Shown: positions 5,007 through 29,141, numbered from the stretch's first letter. The stretch: DNA of 64,000 nucleotides from Candidatus Falkowbacteria bacterium (GCA_016214745.1 JACRNW010000001.1:1038-65037), one strand, 5' to 3'. The notes: generated from the letters alone by a model not told the origin. Translations and numbers: made by a program.

Positions 5007-6005
5007 TTAAGAAAACCACTTTTTTATTTCCGCCATATCAACTTTTCTGTGCGCCACAATCCATCTTCTTTTTCTCCACATCTTCGGAAGTTTTTTAAAA
5101 AATTCTCCTAAACCTTTTAGCGTCCTCGGCTCCAAAAATAAAAGATAAATAAATTTTTTAAATTCGTACCATTTTATCCGATAGCCCCAGCGCCACCACA
5201 GTTCCGCCGGAACATCTTTAAAGAGAAAAAATAAATGATTTTTGTAAGAATGATAATTAACAAAAGCCGATTTCTTTTTTCTCTGGCGCGCCGCCGCGAG
5301 ATCTCCCGCGCCGATACTTCTTGCCGAGCGATCATGATAAGCGCGGGCCGACGACAAAAACCATGCTTTAAAACCCGCGAGACGCAGACGATACACCAGA
5401 TCCACGTCTTCTTTATAACTGAAAAAATCTTCGTCAAAAAATTCTCCGTTAATCGCTATTTCGTTTAATGCTCTACGCCGATAAACCGGCGCGGCGCCGG
5501 AAACGCCAAAAACCTCTTTCGCTTCGTTCCACTTTTGGTCGTCCATCTCCCCCGCCCCCAATTCCACTCCCCGATGATTTTTAAAAATTTTTATGCCGAC
5601 GGAATCAATCAAATCTGTTTTTTGATTATTCGGAAAATCCCAGTGAAGCAATTTTCCCGTCACGGCCGCCACTTCGCTGTGGCTGTCTAAAAATTTAATT
5701 ATTTCTTCTAAAAAATTCTGTTCTAAAATTATATCCTGATTTAACATTAAAACATAATCACTCTCCGTTGCGCGGAGCGCCTGATTATGGCCGGCGGCAA
5801 AACCGACATTTTCCTCATTAAATTCCAGCCGGCAATTCCCGACCGGCAACAGGGAATTTTTTAAATATTCCACCGTTCCGTCAGTTGAACCATTATCCAA
5901 AATGAATAGCGAAAAATCGCGGAAAGTTTGTTTGGCAATTGAATCCAAACAATGTGGCAAATATTTTTTTCCGTTCCAAGTTACTAAATTTATGGAAACC
6001 TTCAT
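5007..6005 (-). CDS. glycosyltransferase family 2
   Basis: VSINLVTWNGKKYLPHCLDSI...ILDNGSTDGT...LNQDII. Confidence 0.8.
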   Translation of the reverse strand: MKVSINLVTWNGKKYLPHCLDSIAKQTFRDFSLFILDNGSTDGTVEYLKNSLLPVGNCRLEFNEENVGFAAGHNQALRATESDYVLMLNQDIILEQNFLEEIIKFLDSHSEVAAVTGKLLHWDFPNNQKTDLIDSVGIKIFKNHRGVELGAGEMDDQKWNEAKEVFGVSGAAPVYRRRALNEIAINGEFFDEDFFSYKEDVDLVYRLRLAGFKAWFLSSARAYHDRSARSIGAGDLAAARQRKKKSAFVNYHSYKNHLFFLFKDVPAELWWRWGYRIKWYEFKKFIYLLFLEPRTLKGLGEFFKKLPKMWRKRRWIVAHRKVDMAEIKKWFS

Positions 6006-6008
6006 AAT

Positions 6009-7523
6009 TTACTTCCTCGCTTTTTCCGTTACCCAAAAACCGAGATATTTTCCGAGCATTAATCTTGTCTGCGCTTCCACGGCCGGAATTGAACCGAACA
6101 AAATTAAAGACACCGGAAGCAGCACCCATTGCGCAAGCATAATGACAAATTTAAACGGACTCTGATTTTTCGGCCGAGGCGGAAGCAAAAACAAAAATAA
6201 AATCGCCGAAACAACCATGCCGAGCATGGCGGCGGTAAGGAGCCACTGCAAAACAAGCGGCGCGGTCTGAAAAAACGCTGTGGCGCCGATTTTTTCTTTG
6301 CCAAACCAAAGCGGCAGTTTACTTAAAACAAACATCAAAATCGGCGCGGTCGCCCAGGAGTACATTCCTTCACCCAAATTCCAAAGATATTTAAATCTTT
6401 TCCAAAACGGGATTCTCGGCACCGCGATTTCTCCCCTGTCGGTTTTTAAAGTTCCGCGGGAAAAATGCCAAACCATATACGGAAAATGCTCAACGCCCCA
6501 AGCCCAACGCCGCTGTTGCTTATAAAGATTGACTAGACTGCGCCATGGCGTTTCGGCCATAACCGTATCCATGGAAACCGGAATATACATCGGCACAACT
6601 TCAAAATCTCCGCCGTAACGGATAAAGCATTGCAAAAAAATTCTTGAATCGTCGGTGACAATATCTTTTTGCCAAAAATCAACATCAACCAAAGCTTTGA
6701 AAGCGATGCTATGCGAAGAAAAAGTAAAAAGCCGGTCGGGTTTCGCAAGTTCGGTCAGGAGCCAAAAGGTCGTGCCGCAAGCCGCGACGCGCATAAGAGA
6801 CATTGAATCCCAAATATTGTTATTGTAAAGCGCCACCGGCTGGAAAGCTGCCCGTTCGCGTTTTGGATGAGTAATATATTTATAAGCGAGACAAGCAAAA
6901 TATTCCGGATGGACGCAAGTATCGCTGTCAAAATATGAAACAACGATTTTTTCGTAAGGAATTTTTAATTCGTCAACCAATTCTTTCGCCTTAAATCCCG
7001 CCCAATGAGCGTTCGCGCCTTTTCCCTTGATCTCGCCGGCCAAATTATCCGGATGAGTGATAATCAAAAGTTTTAAAAATTTTTCGCCAAATTCTTTTTC
7101 TATAATTTCAGCGTTCCTGTCAAAATTTTCTTTATTTCTCTCTTCGCCCGACAAGACGACAATCATTTTATCAAGCGGGTAATGCGAAGCAGCCAAATTA
7201 GAAAATGTGGAGCGCAGCACTTCAATCGGCTCTTTTGAAGTTGGCATGACCACCATGTGATAATAATTCTCCCAGCCGGGCAAAGCGCGAACTTTTTCCA
7301 ACCAATCAGTATGGATGTCTCTCTGATAACGCCGCCAAGAAACTGCCATGTAAAAAACAAAATAAAGAACGCGGAAAAGCCAATACACGGAAAAAATGAT
7401 GACAAAATAAATTACCCAAAGCGGCTTCACAAAAGAAAGCACGACAGCCAAAATAAAAGTCAACCAGACAAGTGTGCCTGGGATCATTTCTAACAATCTA
7501 TATTTTTTTCTATCGGAAAGCAT
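6009..7523 (-). CDS. membrane-embedded processive GT2 glycosyltransferase (cellulose/chitin-synthase-like, QxxRW motif)
   Basis: 504 aa with N-terminal and C-terminal TM segments. It has DSDTCVHPEYF (DxD) and QQRRWAWG (Q[QR]xRW). Confidence 0.7.
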   Translation of the reverse strand: MLSDRKKYRLLEMIPGTLVWLTFILAVVLSFVKPLWVIYFVIIFSVYWLFRVLYFVFYMAVSWRRYQRDIHTDWLEKVRALPGWENYYHMVVMPTSKEPIEVLRSTFSNLAASHYPLDKMIVVLSGEERNKENFDRNAEIIEKEFGEKFLKLLIITHPDNLAGEIKGKGANAHWAGFKAKELVDELKIPYEKIVVSYFDSDTCVHPEYFACLAYKYITHPKRERAAFQPVALYNNNIWDSMSLMRVAACGTTFWLLTELAKPDRLFTFSSHSIAFKALVDVDFWQKDIVTDDSRIFLQCFIRYGGDFEVVPMYIPVSMDTVMAETPWRSLVNLYKQQRRWAWGVEHFPYMVWHFSRGTLKTDRGEIAVPRIPFWKRFKYLWNLGEGMYSWATAPILMFVLSKLPLWFGKEKIGATAFFQTAPLVLQWLLTAAMLGMVVSAILFLFLLPPRPKNQSPFKFVIMLAQWVLLPVSLILFGSIPAVEAQTRLMLGKYLGFWVTEKARK

Positions 7524-16765: not shown

Positions 16766-16779
16766 TTTTGAGACCAAAC

Positions 16780-16851
16780 TCCGAGACTTGGATTCGTCCG
16801 GTCATTCGACCGGACGCCCCGTCGGATGACGGGGCGAACTCCCGCCCTAAT
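16780..16851 (-). repeat. tRNA-linked GC-rich hairpin element, ending in a degenerate copy of the tRNA-Gln 3' end
   Basis: Read in tRNA orientation: after tRNA-Gln comes GGGCGGGAGTTCGCCCCG, then hairpins CCCCGTCatccGACGGGG and GTCCGGTCgaatGACCGGAC, then CGAATCCAAGTCTCGGAG. That last stretch copies the tRNA 3' end CGAATCCAGGTCCCCGAG. Confidence 0.55.
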
Positions 16852-16922
16852 CTCGGGGACCTGGATTCGAACCAGGATAGCCACCTTCAAAGGGTGGTGT
16901 CCTACCGTTAGACGATCCCCGA
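16852..16922 (-). tRNA. tRNA-Gln (anticodon UUG)
   Basis: Manual fold: acceptor UCGGGGA/UCCCCGA with the U1:A72 typical of bacterial tRNA-Gln, D-arm GTCT/GGAC, anticodon stem CCACC/GGTGG with loop CTTTGAA, T-arm CCTGG-TTCGAAT-CCAGG, discriminator G. No CCA is encoded. Confidence 0.8.
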
Positions 16923-16947
16923 GAGCAGAGCGAGAAATTTAAATAAA

Positions 16948-17929: not shown

Positions 17930-18280
17930 CTAGAATTTAGAATTAACAAAGTTATTTAATATTTTCATCACCTCTACTAAGGTAATCTCTACTCCTTTAA
18001 AACTTAATTTCGGAAATAAAACTTTAGCAATTTCGATCTGGCTTTCCAATTCTGACCCAGAACCAAACGCAACGCACAATAATTGTTTCTTTTCTTTGGC
18101 GTGAAAACGATGATAGCTCTCAGCAATATTGGAAGAAATAGAAATTACAGCTCTTCTCATCTGATTCGTTAAACCATACACTTCAGAATGAGGAAATTCA
18201 TCTGTCAACCGATAAATCTCTACAGCCAAATCACGCGCTTTCTGCCAAACCACCAATTCCTTAAAAGATTTTGTGGCCAT
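17930..18280 (-). CDS. four-helix-bundle protein (23S rRNA intervening-sequence protein family, TIGR02436-like)
   Basis: 116 aa. VVWQKARDLAVEIYRLT...ISSNIAESY is characteristic of this family. It is inserted between ftsE and ftsX. Confidence 0.7.
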   Translation of the reverse strand: MATKSFKELVVWQKARDLAVEIYRLTDEFPHSEVYGLTNQMRRAVISISSNIAESYHRFHAKEKKQLLCVAFGSGSELESQIEIAKVLFPKLSFKGVEITLVEVMKILNNFVNSKF

Positions 18281-18313: not shown

Positions 18314-18994
18314 CTACAATACGTATTTTCCAACCTCTTGATCGCTGATAACCGTCCCCTGCTCAAGCGTTACGACTCGCCGGCGCAAAGAATTAACCAA
18401 CTCGCGATTATGAGAAACCAAAAGAACGGTCGTGCCAAACTCATTGATTTTCAAAAGTAAATCAGCGATTTCTCTCGTATTGATTGAATCAAGATTTCCG
18501 GTTGGCTCGTCGGCCACTAAAATCTTCGGCCGATGAATCAGGGCACGGGCGATAGCGACTCTCTGCTGCTCGCCGCCCGAAACTTGTTTTGGATAACGGT
18601 CAGCTTTTTCATCCAAACCGACAATTCTCAAAACTTGCGGAACAATTGTTTTGATTCTTCCAACTGAGGCACCGCAAACTTCAAGAGCAAAGGCGACATT
18701 TTCAAAAATAGTTTTCTTGGGCAAAAGTTTAAAATCCTGAAAAATAACTCCGATCTGCCGCCGCAAAGTCGGAATTTCCGAGCGTCTGATTTTTGTAATA
18801 TCCCAATCGCCGATCGTGATCTTACCGCGCGTCGGACGCTCTTCCGCAGTCAGCAATTTGATAAGCGTCGTTTTGCCGGTCCCCGACTGGCCGACAATAG
18901 AAACAAATTCTCCGGCGTTAATTTTTAAATTTACGCCCTGCAGGGCGACTGTGTTCGGCGGATAAATTTTTTCTATACCTCGAAACTCAATCAT
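18314..18994 (-). CDS. ftsE: cell division ATP-binding protein FtsE
   Basis: Walker A GQSGTGKTT, ABC signature VSGGEQQRVAIARAL and Walker B ILVADEPTGNLD. Confidence 0.9.
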   Translation of the reverse strand: MIEFRGIEKIYPPNTVALQGVNLKINAGEFVSIVGQSGTGKTTLIKLLTAEERPTRGKITIGDWDITKIRRSEIPTLRRQIGVIFQDFKLLPKKTIFENVAFALEVCGASVGRIKTIVPQVLRIVGLDEKADRYPKQVSGGEQQRVAIARALIHRPKILVADEPTGNLDSINTREIADLLLKINEFGTTVLLVSHNRELVNSLRRRVVTLEQGTVISDQEVGKYVL

Positions 18995-19089
18995 ATTAAT
19001 ACATTATATGCGATTATCAAAAAAATGCCAACCCCAAAATCTAAGAAAAGGTCTTGACTTGATTTTTCTCTTAAAACGTCCTAAACTAA

Positions 19090-19265
19090 GATTAATATTT
19101 ACAAAAAGGCGCGGGATTAGTATAGTGGCAGTATGCGACCTTCCCAGGCCCCCACACCAAATTCGCGAGAGTAGTTCAATGGTAGAATGCGTGCTTCCCA
19201 AGCACGAGACGGGGGTTCGATTCCCCTTTCTCGCTGATTTGGTGTAGGGGCAAGTTGAGGCGCCG
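19090..19265 (+). other. outer tRNA-Gly(CCC)-like sequence interrupted by ~105 nt that contain a complete tRNA-Gly(CCC) (probable disrupted or pseudo tRNA)
   Basis: The 5' part GCGGGAT-TA-GTAT-AGTGGCA-GTAT-G-CGACC-TTCCCA(G) is a tRNA 5' half with a CCC anticodon loop. The 3' part (A)AGTTG-AGGC-GCCGG-TTCGATT-CCGGT-ATCCCGC-T supplies a T-arm and a complementary acceptor strand. The two parts are separated by 19127..19230. Confidence 0.4.
19144..19214 (+). tRNA. tRNA-Gly (anticodon CCC)
   Basis: GCGAGAG-TA-GTTC-AATGGTA-GAAT-G-CGTGC-TTCCCAA-GCACG-AGAC-GGGGG-TTCGATT-CCCCT-TTCTCGC-T, a clean cloverleaf. It is bracketed by a 14/15-bp helix (19127..19141 pairing with 19216..19230). Confidence 0.85.
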
Positions 19266-19282
19266 GTTCGATTCCGGTATCC

Positions 19283-19424
19283 CGCTTTGAAAATACAAAT
19301 AAATTTTGGCGGAATCGAACGGGAAGGGTTTGGGAAACGGGAGTTTCCCACCTTTTCGGCGGAAAACAGTTGGGGAAAACCGCCGGTTTGCCCCAAGCGC
19401 AGTCCCGCCATGGCGGGACGAGTA
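19283..19424 (+). ncRNA. tRNA-linked structured element (copy 1) ending in a duplicate of the preceding tRNA 3' end
   Basis: TTTTGGCGGAATCGAACGGGAAGGG, hairpin GGGAAACgggaGTTTCCC, hairpin CGGCGG...CCGCCG, hairpin GCGCAGTCCCGCCATGGCGGGACGAGTAGTGAG, then ATTCCGGTATCCCGCT, which copies 19250..19265. A homologous copy lies at 28989..29120. Confidence 0.55.
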
Positions 19425-19447
19425 GTGAGATTCCGGTATCCCGCTTT

Positions 19448-19523
19448 TAAAAACTTGGCGCAATCTTTGCCGACGTAGCTCAGCCAGCAGAGCAATGCTT
19501 TCGTAAAGCAGAGGTCGTGGGTG
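19448..19523 (+). tRNA. tRNA-Thr (anticodon CGU), CCA encoded
   Basis: GCCGACG-TA-GCTC-AGCCAGCA-GAGC-A-ATGCT-TTCGTAA-AGCAG-AGGTC-GTGGG-TGCAAAT-CCCAC-CGTCGGC-T-CCA. Confidence 0.8.
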
Positions 19524-19524
19524 C

Positions 19525-19558
19525 AAATCCCACCGTCGGCTCCAGAAAACAGCAATTC
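19525..19558 (+). terminator. rho-independent terminator after tRNA-Thr
   Basis: AAAACAGCaattcatttttgaagGCTGTTTTTT. Confidence 0.55.
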
Positions 19559-19562
19559 ATTT

Positions 19563-19583
19563 TTGAAGGCTGTTTTTTGATTT
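19563..19583 (+). repeat. degenerate duplicate of tRNA-Thr 3' end
   Basis: AACTCCCACCGTCGGCTTAGG versus the tRNA 3' end AAATCCCACCGTCGGCTCCA. Confidence 0.5.
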
Positions 19584-19642
19584 AACTCCCACCGTCGGCT
19601 TAGGAAAAACGGACTTTTAGAGAAAGGCCGTTTTTCTTTTTC

Positions 19643-20653
19643 CTAAATTTTTATAAACCGCCAAATTCTTGCCTTTGCTGATTCTTCAGTCAGATAATCG
19701 TCCAAACTCTTTGTCTTTATTAAAATATGCTCCGCCCGTACTTGGATGACTTCGCCATTTTCATCTTTAACTTGCTCCGTAACTTTTATAATATGGTAAC
19801 CATAACTCGTTAAAACCAAATCGCTTGTCTCTCCGACTCCGAGAGCAAACGCCGCCGCTTCAAATTCCGGGACCATGGTTCCTCGGCCAAAATAACTCAG
19901 GTCGCCGCCATCCTCCGCAGTCGTGTCTTCACTGTATTCTTTTGCCAAATCCTCAAAACTTTTTTCTCCCCTTTTCACTTCAGCCAAAACATTTTCAGCT
20001 TTTTGTTTCGCCTCTTGGTTTAATGTCTCGTCTTTGGAAATGGCTTCCTGCAATTTTTGCTGGATTAAAAACGGCTTTAAAACTTTTTCCTTAAACTCTT
20101 CAATGCCCCAGCCGTATTGTTCTTGCAAAGTTTTTTCAACATTTTCCCTTGATTCGTCTTGAGAGACAATCTTTTCCACTTCCGCTTCCAGCTCGCTGTC
20201 TGAAACGCTCACATTATATTTTTTTGCCAATTGATAAGAAAGTTCATTTTTCAAAAGCCGATCCAAAACCTGGCTTTTAAGTTCTTGCTCGCTCGGTATC
20301 TCCGCTCCCAATTCCGCGCCCTGGCTCGCAAAAAAAGTCTTTAAAGTTTCCAGGTCATCCGCGTAATCGGAAAATCTGACCGGATGCCAATTAACAAGAG
20401 CGGCGGGATATGGCGCAACTTTGGTAATTTTTGCGACGACTTCTCCGCTCCAGCCAAAACGATAAATTCCGATGCCGAAAATTACCGCGGCTAAAACTAA
20501 AATTGAAAGCGCTCCCAAGCCAAGTCCCAAAAAGAATTTTTTCAGGCCGCCTTTTTTAGAATCAGACATTGTCTCGCCCGCGCCGGCTGTTTCGGGAATA
20601 GATTCAGAAACTTCCATCTCTTTTTCCTCGTTCTCTTTTAATGGTAAATCCAT
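19643..20653 (-). CDS. membrane-anchored parvulin-type peptidyl-prolyl isomerase (PrsA/SurA-like)
   Basis: N-terminal TM helix and a SurA_N-like helical region. The C-terminal PpiC domain reads GGDLSYFGRGTMVPEFEAAAFALGVGETSDLVLTSYGYHIIKV. Confidence 0.7.
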   Translation of the reverse strand: MDLPLKENEEKEMEVSESIPETAGAGETMSDSKKGGLKKFFLGLGLGALSILVLAAVIFGIGIYRFGWSGEVVAKITKVAPYPAALVNWHPVRFSDYADDLETLKTFFASQGAELGAEIPSEQELKSQVLDRLLKNELSYQLAKKYNVSVSDSELEAEVEKIVSQDESRENVEKTLQEQYGWGIEEFKEKVLKPFLIQQKLQEAISKDETLNQEAKQKAENVLAEVKRGEKSFEDLAKEYSEDTTAEDGGDLSYFGRGTMVPEFEAAAFALGVGETSDLVLTSYGYHIIKVTEQVKDENGEVIQVRAEHILIKTKSLDDYLTEESAKARIWRFIKI

Positions 20654-28799: not shown

Positions 28800-28900
28800 A
28801 AAACTCTTGCCAAAAATAAAATGCCTTGGTATTATTATATCAAATTAAGACTAAAACGGCTATCAACGACTTCCTCGTTCTTTTTTTAAAATTTCATTAT

Positions 28901-28973
28901 GACCCGGTAGCTCAGCTGGTAGAGCATCTGCCTTTTAAGCAGAGTGTCCTGGGTTCGAGCCCCAGCCGGGTCA
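28901..28973 (+). tRNA. tRNA-Lys (anticodon UUU)
   Basis: GACCCGG-TA-GCTC-AGCTGGTA-GAGC-A-TCTGC-CTTTTAA-GCAGA-GTGTC-CTGGG-TTCGAGC-CCCAG-CCGGGTC-A. Confidence 0.9.
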
Positions 28974-28988
28974 TTTTTTATTTGCTAA

Positions 28989-29120
28989 TTTTTGGCTGGG
29001 CTCGAACGGGAAGGGGTCGGGAAACGGGAGTTTCCCGATTTGCGGAAATATTAAAACCGCAGGGTTTTAAAGCGCAGTCCCGCCATGGCGGGACGAGCAG
29101 TGAGCGCCCCAGCCGGGTCA
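28989..29120 (+). ncRNA. tRNA-linked structured element (copy 2) ending in duplicate of tRNA-Lys 3' end
   Basis: TTTTTGGCTGGGCTCGAACGGGAAGGGG, hairpin CGGGAAACgggaGTTTCCCG, hairpin TGCGG...CCGCA (compensatory relative to copy 1), GCGCAGTCCCGCCATGGCGGGACGAGCAGTGAGC, then GCCCCAGCCGGGTCA plus TTTTTTATTT, which duplicates 28958..28983. Confidence 0.55.
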
Positions 29121-29141
29121 TTTTTTATTTCCCCATAATTT

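Follow-up and report, generated by a model that had tools for sequence, protein, structure and literature searches.

A complete tRNA-Gly(CCC) gene nested in a disrupted resident tRNA-Gly(CCC) gene of Patescibacteria, a probable case of in-place gene replacement

Architecture of the locus

A complete tRNA-Gly(CCC) gene lies within the anticodon loop of a second tRNA-Gly(CCC) gene in a 64,000-nucleotide (nt) stretch of DNA from Candidatus Falkowbacteria bacterium (GCA_016214745.1, JACRNW010000001.1:1038-65037), referred to here as the window. Genes near the locus include ftsE, ftsX, murD, a second Mur ligase gene, murG, ftsW and a ppiC/prsA-like gene, and the order ppiC, tRNA-Thr(CGT), tRNA-Gly(CCC), ftsE, ftsX, tRNA-Gln is kept in all close relatives. 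The nearest database proteins carry the label Patescibacteria, and the host is a bacterium of the candidate phyla radiation (CPR) type. We compared the locus with orthologous loci from related lineages (given as L-numbers), and interpret the inner gene as a probable in-place replacement of the outer one. Relatives returned by an FtsE-based search of genome contigs were too distant for this comparison (at most 70% identity) and lacked a tRNA-Gly at the site, and an exact look-up of the FtsE sequence of the window matched no record.

The arrangement was described correctly in an initial annotation of the window, as was the clean cloverleaf of the inner tRNA, but all coordinates were shifted and need 21 added; the inner tRNA, given there as 19144..19214, is placed by ARAGORN and Rfam as listed in Table 1. 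The interruption, estimated at about 105 nt, is exactly that long (71 nt of tRNA and 34 nt of other sequence), and alignment with intact orthologues puts the insertion point after A37, i.e. between positions 37 and 38 of the tRNA, with an ambiguity of ±1 nt. The outer 5′ half (GCGGGATTAGTATAGTGGCAGTATGCGACCTTCCCA) comprises the acceptor strand GCGGGAT, the D arm, CGACC and TTCCCA, and the outer 3′ half (AAGTTGAGGCGCCGGTTCGATTCCGGTATCCCGCT) divides into A, AGTTG, AGGC, GCCGG, TTCGATT, CCGGT, ATCCCGC and T. Any splice that excises 105 nt gives a 71-nt product of the joined halves, which ARAGORN calls tRNA-Gly(ccc), in support of the second tRNA that the initial annotation had proposed around the inner one. 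The weakness noticed in its anticodon stem is caused by a C31·A39 mismatch.

The two ends of the insert form the closing helix recognised at the outset, with arms as then written and 14 of 15 positions paired in the window. The inner acceptor stem carries this helix stacked across a 2 × 2 internal loop, and the inverted repeat reaches 23 nt at 87% complementarity once that stem is counted. At minimum free energy (MFE), 19111-19286 folds into one cloverleaf enclosed by another (-78.7 kcal/mol, z = -5.35, 0 of 200 shuffles as good). In place, the outer halves were detected neither by Rfam nor by intron-aware ARAGORN (introns of 0-400 nt), which gave the inner tRNA alone; intron models, the check suggested with the initial annotation, were unmatched. 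Joined, the halves do score as tRNA, and the flanks of the orthologous loci are related to those of the window.

The resident gene in related lineages

An uninterrupted tRNA-Gly(CCC) (GCGGGATTAGTATAGTGGCAGTATGCGACCTTCCCAAGGTTGAGGCGCCGGTTCGATTCCGGTATCCCGCT) occupies the syntenic site in L082/L083, L084 and L088-L090, identical to the joined outer halves of the window at 70 of 71 positions, with G39→A as the sole difference. Intact but more diverged versions of the resident gene are found in L086 and L092/93, and the intact gene has an Rfam score of 60.1 bits in L082 and 58.4 bits in L092. The 105-nt insert is missing at the orthologous site in L082/83, L084, L086, L088-90 and L092/93, and present in L081, L097/98 and L087. 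Uninterrupted orthologues in at least five related lineages thus identify the outer tRNA as the original resident gene, and the inner one as part of an insertion at 37/38.

The inner tRNA resembles generic bacterial tRNA-Gly genes at up to 86% identity (BLAST), and is probably of foreign origin. When the whole insert was compared with phage and plasmid records by BLAST, only the tRNA part gave matches, to generic tRNA-Gly genes. A paralogue of the resident gene, produced by local duplication or template switching, would explain the shared anticodon, a common loop sequence (CTTCCCAAG) and about 73% identity over 45 nt. Over their full length, however, the two genes are identical at only 52 of 71 positions, while the resident gene is conserved at 70-71 of 71 positions across lineages, and the differences lie in all stems and are fully compensated, unlike those of a recent duplicate. 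Together with the closer likeness to generic tRNA-Gly genes, this makes a local origin extremely unlikely.

As the window probably derives from a metagenome assembly, a chimera of two strains with different tRNA-Gly genes was also considered. This is refuted, and can be given practically no weight: the same architecture occurs with allele-specific substitutions in four independent assemblies (ENA, NCBI, Logan and JGI), and the longest identical run between the two tRNAs at the junction region is 9 bases, which is too short to produce a chimera.

Retention and decay in four nested alleles

The nested alleles comprise the window, L081 (ENA), L097 (NCBI GCA_964649075.1, identical to L098 from Logan) and L087 (JGI), the latter three holding the same insert at the same junctions as the window. 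L087 was retrieved with a search pattern drawn from the insert alone, hence its outer sequence is an unbiased sample.

All 21 stem pairs of the inner tRNA are kept in each of the four alleles, and its only two substitutions both exchange a G-C for a G·U pair or the reverse. The closing helix varies from a perfect repeat in L087 (GCCCCCACACCAAAT/ATTTGGTGTGGGGGC; 15/15 pairs) to 13/15 in both L081 and L097, and the substitutions within it are all transitions, all in the 3′ arm and without a single compensation. In the outer gene, positions 31 and 39 form the C·A mismatch in each of the four nested alleles and a C-G pair in all intact orthologues. L097 has an extra C·U mismatch in the outer T stem. 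In L087 the outer anticodon has changed from CCC to CCT and A37 to G (CCCA reads CCTG), and the entire T arm is replaced by AAAAT. The pattern across this small sample of four alleles suggests purifying selection on the inner gene, and none on the outer gene or the helix.

Two further observations on the outer gene were not retained as evidence. The T-loop TCCGATT is found in the outer half of L081, and the same is listed for that of L097; U (as pseudouridine) is almost universal at tRNA position 55, and the U55→C change in L081 was considered as decay. The intact L092/93 gene (L092 3367-3437, 58.4 bits, the sole tRNA-Gly at its locus) has C at this position in the same loop, and the candidate was dropped. 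Furthermore, the window and L081 differ at 112 of 453 4-fold sites (25%), at 1 of 71 outer positions and nowhere across 19100-19228. This low outer divergence was considered as a sign of purifying selection and likewise dropped, given the shared recombination tract described below and the disruptive changes in L087 and L097.

A functional intron or a cis-linked split tRNA was also considered, in which, once the inner tRNA is cut out, the 15-bp helix would hold the outer halves together, as in the split tRNAs of Nanoarchaeum, to be trimmed and ligated or used in two pieces, giving two tRNA-Gly species per transcript. An insertion at the canonical 37/38 position, GC-rich complementary sequences beside each half that resemble the leaders of split tRNAs (PMC4033280), an outer gene whose acceptor, D and T arms are intact in the window and in L081, and the nested cloverleaf predicted by the MFE fold are all compatible with such a role. 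The host is bacterial, however, and group I introns are the only bacterial tRNA introns described (PMC4033280). A bulge-helix-bulge (BHB) motif is lacking: the fold has an asymmetric internal loop (about 7 nt versus 1-2 nt) followed by a continuous 15-bp helix, and manual pairing of anticodon-loop nt 32-35 with the 3′ GGGG leaves an 8-nt bulge instead of one of 3 nt. Searched with Rfam at E ≤ 10, region 18950-19750 matched no intron (group I or II), no ribozyme and no further family, whether in the insert, in the outer halves or in the neighbouring element E1. The supposed exons decay (31-39 in all carriers, the T stem in L097, the T arm and anticodon in L087) beside a perfect inner tRNA in L087, changes in the helix go uncompensated, and the low outer divergence between the window and L081 is due to a recombination tract, not to constraint. 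We therefore regard a spliced or split tRNA as very unlikely, and the intron-like insertion offered by the initial annotation as unsupported.

Lateral spread and mosaic structure

The inserts of the window and L087 are identical at 104 of 105 positions, and the ftsE and ftsX genes of the two differ at 44-47% of 4-fold sites. Among the 34 non-tRNA bases of the insert there is one difference, against about 15 expected neutrally, which is far below chance by our own calculation. A tree of FtsE plus FtsX gives 100% bootstrap support to the placement of L087 with the intact L082, L084 and L089, 90% to the pairing of the window with L081, and 0% to a grouping of every carrier. Divergence within 18911-19030 amounts to 4 of 120 positions between the window and L081/L097, 22 of 120 between the window and L082, and 14 of 120 between L082 and L084, a profile indicating a tract that was recently shared rather than constrained. 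The upstream flank of L087 is L082-like, with 0 differences in 60 positions.

The conflict of the allele with the host tree, combined with these recombination tracts, indicates lateral spread of the nested allele. By this tree it would have been gained at least twice or lost precisely several times, and either history calls for gene flow at the locus. Compared with in situ xenologous replacement, the locus shows both the conflict between allele and phylogeny with discordant local tracts and, in a small sample, a replacement copy that appears selected next to a displaced copy in decay.

The neighbouring tRNA genes are mosaic too. At 19545-19640 of the window, an L082-type terminator follows tRNA-Thr, then come a second Thr 3′ end (AACTCCCACCGTCGGCT, 19584-19600) and an L088-type terminator; L097 has the same Thr stub behind an L084-type terminator, and the tRNA-Thr of L081 is of a different kind altogether. 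The arrangement in the window looks like the import of a foreign tRNA-Thr segment that was anchored on one side only. The window tRNA-Gln(UUG) (16776-16923, minus strand) is unlike that of all relatives, and a stub of the relatives' type (GAATCCAAGTCTCGGAG) lies 73 nt further on. The tRNA-Gln is another case of in-place tRNA replacement. We infer from the mosaic pattern that homologous and homology-facilitated illegitimate recombination acted after DNA uptake.

A second, independent replacement in L095

In L095 (3709-3988, minus strand), the resident tRNA-Gly(CCC) keeps nt 1-34 and its last 15 nt, and nt 35-56 (22 nt) have given way to 194 nt. Within these lies another, different tRNA-Gly(CCC), which is complete, encodes its CCA and scores 69.6 bits. 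The resident gene is intact in L092/93, the sister lineage of L095. With this loss the resident gene of L095 is beyond rescue by any splicing model, and the case indicates that foreign takeover of a destroyed resident tRNA-Gly(CCC) happened at least two times.

The flanks of the L095 insert contain three GC-rich hairpin units (TCCGCC-N14-GGCGGA). A closing helix around its inner tRNA, comparable to that in the window, was unsupported, as the leader/trailer duplex reaches only z ~ -2 against shuffles and the flanks form three separate hairpins. A GC-rich, hairpin-rich insertion of about 125 nt also occurs just upstream of tRNA-Thr in L092 (3220-3345, minus strand) and L093; it starts with a copy of the first 10 nt of the tRNA (GCCGACGTAG) and is absent in L095.

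Evidence bearing on a mobile cassette

Both inserts raise the question of a site-specific mobile cassette, i.e. a non-autonomous 105-bp unit put repeatedly into tRNA-Gly(CCC) anticodon loops by an enzyme encoded elsewhere. Its inverted repeats would be transposase ends or palindromic attP half-sites, and it would persist by addiction, because it kills the resident gene and carries the sole replacement. A 15/15 inverted repeat exactly at the insert ends (23 nt at 87% with the inner acceptor stem) is what such a unit should have, the junctions are the same in carriers that the host tree shows to be polyphyletic, and the anticodon loop of L095 holds a second, different insert bearing a tRNA-Gly(CCC). 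Integrative elements are also active at nearby tRNAs, including a large serine recombinase by tRNA-Gln in L083 and the elements E1 and E2, which duplicate tRNA 3′ ends.

A clean target-site duplication is lacking, however, as comparison of the intact CCCAAGGTTG with the nested CCCAG[...]AAGTTG reveals; when fitted by hand, an integron-type G|TT crossover and target-site duplications of 2, 3, 4 and 5 bp all need extra indels or substitutions. No further copy of an arm was found in the 64-kb window or the 96 other loci examined. A 23-nt arm/tRNA junction had one match in JGI metagenomes, which is the orthologous locus, and the palindromic junction expected on excision (GGTGTGGGGGC-N0-8-GCCCCCACACC) was found neither in viral contigs nor in the other loci examined. 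Viral contigs contained no match to the arm/tRNA junction, to the anticodon arm of the inner tRNA, to the core of the E elements or to the palindromic attP junction. A circle as small as 105 bp recombines poorly, and the flanking recombination tracts already account for the spread. Taken together, a mobile cassette is unlikely, although clearly less so than a spliced tRNA or a local duplicate.

A broader form of this idea, in which the 105-bp unit and the L095 insert are both selfish "tRNA replacement cassettes" that home to the anticodon loop of the resident isoacceptor, kill the gene, become indispensable as holders of the sole functional copy, are driven by the host promoter and move laterally among Patescibacteria, is similarly doubtful. 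The same low expectation applies to its corollary, that some enzyme recognises the terminal inverted repeat.

Promoters and neighbouring elements

The candidate operon promoter upstream of the outer tRNA (Table 1) includes a block (TTGATTTTT) that alignment shows to be invariant in six lineages; in the window it scores 8/12, under the scan threshold, hence it is put forward as a candidate only. The sigma-70-like site further downstream has its -35 in another invariant block (GATTAATATTTACAAA) and is also present in intact resident genes. In the nested alleles it could be a putative promoter of the inner tRNA, starting transcription about 30 nt ahead of it.

Table 1. Features of the window and of related loci, with the evidence on which each is based.
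Feature	Coordinates	Strand	Evidence or remark
Inner tRNA-Gly(CCC)	19165..19235	+	ARAGORN; Rfam tRNA, 67 bits; stem pairs kept in four alleles; BLAST
Outer 5′ half, resident tRNA-Gly(CCC), standard numbering 1-37, putative inner-tRNA leader	19111..19146	+	Identical to nt 1-36 of intact L082, L084, L088
Outer 3′ half, resident tRNA-Gly(CCC) nt 38-73 with G39→A, putative inner-tRNA trailer	19252..19286	+	34/35 identical to intact orthologues
105-nt insert (type A cassette): G + 5′ arm + TC + inner tRNA + G + 3′ arm	19147..19251	+	Absent/present comparison across orthologous loci
5′ arm of terminal inverted repeat, GCCCCCACACCAAAT	19148..19162	+	Invariant in all four nested alleles
3′ arm of terminal inverted repeat, ATTTGGTGTAGGGGC	19237..19251	+	Pairs 14/15 in window, 15/15 in L087, 13/15 in L081 and L097
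Candidate operon promoter, -35 TTGATT, 17-nt spacer, -10 TAAACT (relatives TAGAAT)	19059..19087	+	Upstream of outer tRNA
Sigma-70-like site TTTACA-17-TATAGT	19098..19126	+	Consensus scan 10/12; -10 within D arm of outer 5′ half
tRNA-Thr(CGT), downstream in same operon	19469..19544	+	Gene and terminator match L082; older 3′ stub at 19584-19600
E1, separate 159-nt element at outer tRNA T-loop/3′ end	19287..19447	+	Not part of nested cassette
E2, after tRNA-Lys (28900-28974)	window 28984-29130		
E3, after tRNA-Gln	L065 4740-4930		
tRNA-Gln 3′-duplicate sites	L081 ~5900-6060; L082 ~7135-7300; L087 ~5200-5375; L095 ~5825-6000		

E1, E2 and E3 belong to a family of non-coding elements of 147-190 nt at the T-loop/3′ end of different tRNA genes (Gly, Lys and Gln). 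Each begins with a 19-25-nt duplicate of the tRNA 3′ end, followed by an inverted copy of the T-arm of the same tRNA, a conserved core (GGGAAGGG-TTGGGAAAC-GGRA-GTTTCCC) and a variable hairpin, which is followed in E1 and E2 by the palindrome GTCCCGCCATGGCGGGAC. E1 is bounded by the duplicate GATTCCGGTATCCCGCTTT (19270-19288 and 19429-19447), and by alignment L097 and L084 lack it at this site; neither E1 nor E2 matched an Rfam family. They may be miniature integrative elements, which leaves the target-matched inverted copy unaccounted for.

Downstream of tRNA-Gln, the relatives have a hairpin resembling a terminator, then a conserved GC-rich segment of about 80 nt and a 20-nt exact copy of the tRNA 3′ end (TTCGAATCCAAGTCCCGGAG), which is perfect in four lineages and decayed in L084. 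A gene for a 556-aa large serine recombinase adjoins tRNA-Gln in L083, where other genes lie in L082. A 116-aa open reading frame between ftsE and ftsX (17930-18280, minus strand) matches PF05635, the 23S rRNA-intervening-sequence protein family, at 100 bits. In relatives, ftsE and ftsX lie about 90-105 nt apart, and sometimes just 3 nt, hence this reading frame is a lineage-specific insertion.

Discussion

The evidence is best explained by in-place replacement: a cassette with a foreign isoacceptor copy probably replaced the resident tRNA gene where it stood and then spread by recombination, with no intron involved. The ancestral state was a single tRNA-Gly(CCC) followed by tRNA-Thr(CGT), behind a conserved putative promoter between ftsE and the ppiC-like gene. 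In some lineages a 105-bp segment carrying a foreign tRNA-Gly(CCC) of more standard bacterial type between 15-bp inverted repeats interrupts that gene at 37/38, which would have destroyed the resident gene and supplied the sole working tRNA-Gly(CCC) at the locus. Two other origins had been proposed in the initial annotation. A recombination scar with a replacement copy comes near the evidence, with ancestral halves, a foreign inner copy and lateral movement all borne out. A mini-element with inverted ends agrees with the inverted repeats, with a foreign tRNA that seems selected and with movement between lineages, but evidence of self-mobility is lacking.

Only 18 nt of the insert precede the inner tRNA, leaving no space for a promoter of its own, hence it would use the resident promoter, or the promoter-like site with its -10 in the outer 5′ half. 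Ribonuclease (RNase) P would release its 5′ end and RNase Z or exonucleases its 3′ end, and as neither Gly gene encodes CCA this would be added after processing. The outer halves would then serve merely as leader and trailer. The 15-bp helix, now eroding, may block misfolding between two similar tRNAs or offer a site for RNase III. Spread between related Patescibacteria lineages was most likely by homologous recombination anchored on the conserved tRNA and promoter sequences.

Several points weigh against this replacement history. Recombination alone does not explain the perfect terminal inverted repeat of the ancestral form. All carriers share the right junction GC|AAGTTG, which fits a single origin followed by recombination and equally a precise site-specific mechanism. 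That the inner gene is functional and the outer is not is deduced from substitution patterns in four alleles, and the outer gene of the window, whose arms are intact save for the 31-39 pair, may retain residual function. Finally, a second tRNA-Gly(CCC) may lie elsewhere in the genome, beyond the 64 kb seen here, and would weaken the idea of a sole gene.

For annotation, these results imply that a "nested tRNA" in a bacterium can come from gene replacement, with no need for a splicing system. tRNA-finders give the inner gene alone and overlook the disrupted resident, and a naive reading of the two would lead to a false protein-spliced intron or split tRNA in bacteria. For evolution, the locus offers a dated series from intact gene through fresh insertion and point decay to loss of an arm, in which a foreign isoacceptor would oust the resident tRNA in place and borrow its promoter. 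With the L095 event, the replaced tRNA-Gln and tRNA-Thr and the elements at 3′ ends, this suggests that tRNA genes in the reduced genomes of Patescibacteria are hotspots of micro-scale horizontal exchange, which bears on how organisms with one copy per tRNA tolerate such traffic. Should the cassette be self-mobile after all, it would represent a new, minimal kind of addictive element.

Comparison with known systems

Known disrupted tRNA genes include those with group I introns (the sole bacterial kind, at 37/38 and with about ten helices), archaeal and eukaryal BHB introns, and split, tri-split and permuted tRNAs (PMC4033280). The BHB motif consists of two 3-nt bulges 4 bp apart, and a group I ribozyme core of about 10 helices takes up roughly 100 nt or more (PMC4033280). 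Full-text literature searches turned up no earlier account of one complete tRNA lying within the anticodon loop of another, hence this nested form of in-place replacement is apparently undescribed.

Group I introns in the anticodon loops of bacterial tRNAs, such as tRNA-Leu(UAA) and tRNA-fMet of cyanobacteria, share with the nested insert the 37/38 position and a sporadic distribution among relatives that suggests lateral transfer. Here, in contrast, there is no ribozyme core and no Rfam intron match, 71 of the 105 nt are a tRNA, and the exons are not preserved. The archaeal split tRNAs and BHB introns of Nanoarchaeum equitans and Caldivirga (PMC4033280) are similar in form only, through the exact 37/38 position and GC-rich complementary flanks that form a helix. 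They differ in that our host is bacterial, no BHB is present even in relaxed form, the intervening sequence is itself a tRNA and the halves decay in relatives.

Phages, integrative and conjugative elements and genomic islands integrate at tRNA genes and rebuild them with a copy of the segment that they displace. Such integrative elements resemble the insert in their target and in that the incoming DNA preserves tRNA function, and the genomes compared here show classic signs of them at other tRNAs (E1, E2 and the L083 serine recombinase). The 105-bp insert, however, brings a whole different tRNA rather than a displaced 3′ part and has no integrase, its ends lack a direct tRNA repeat (attL/attR), and the resident gene is dead rather than reconstituted; the neighbouring E1 and E2 do show a direct repeat of a tRNA segment. 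Miniature inverted-repeat transposable elements are likewise small and non-coding, and perfect 15-bp terminal inverted repeats stood exactly at the insert ends in the ancestral form. Unlike these elements, the insert has no target-site duplication, is seen as one copy at one locus and carries what appears to be a functional tRNA.

The closest comparison is xenologous in situ displacement by homologous or homology-facilitated illegitimate recombination, with which the locus shares a foreign equivalent at the same position, mosaic divergence and the stubs of tRNA-Thr and tRNA-Gln. The difference is that the replacement took place within the old gene and left both halves flanking it, which is unusual for an event anchored on one side.

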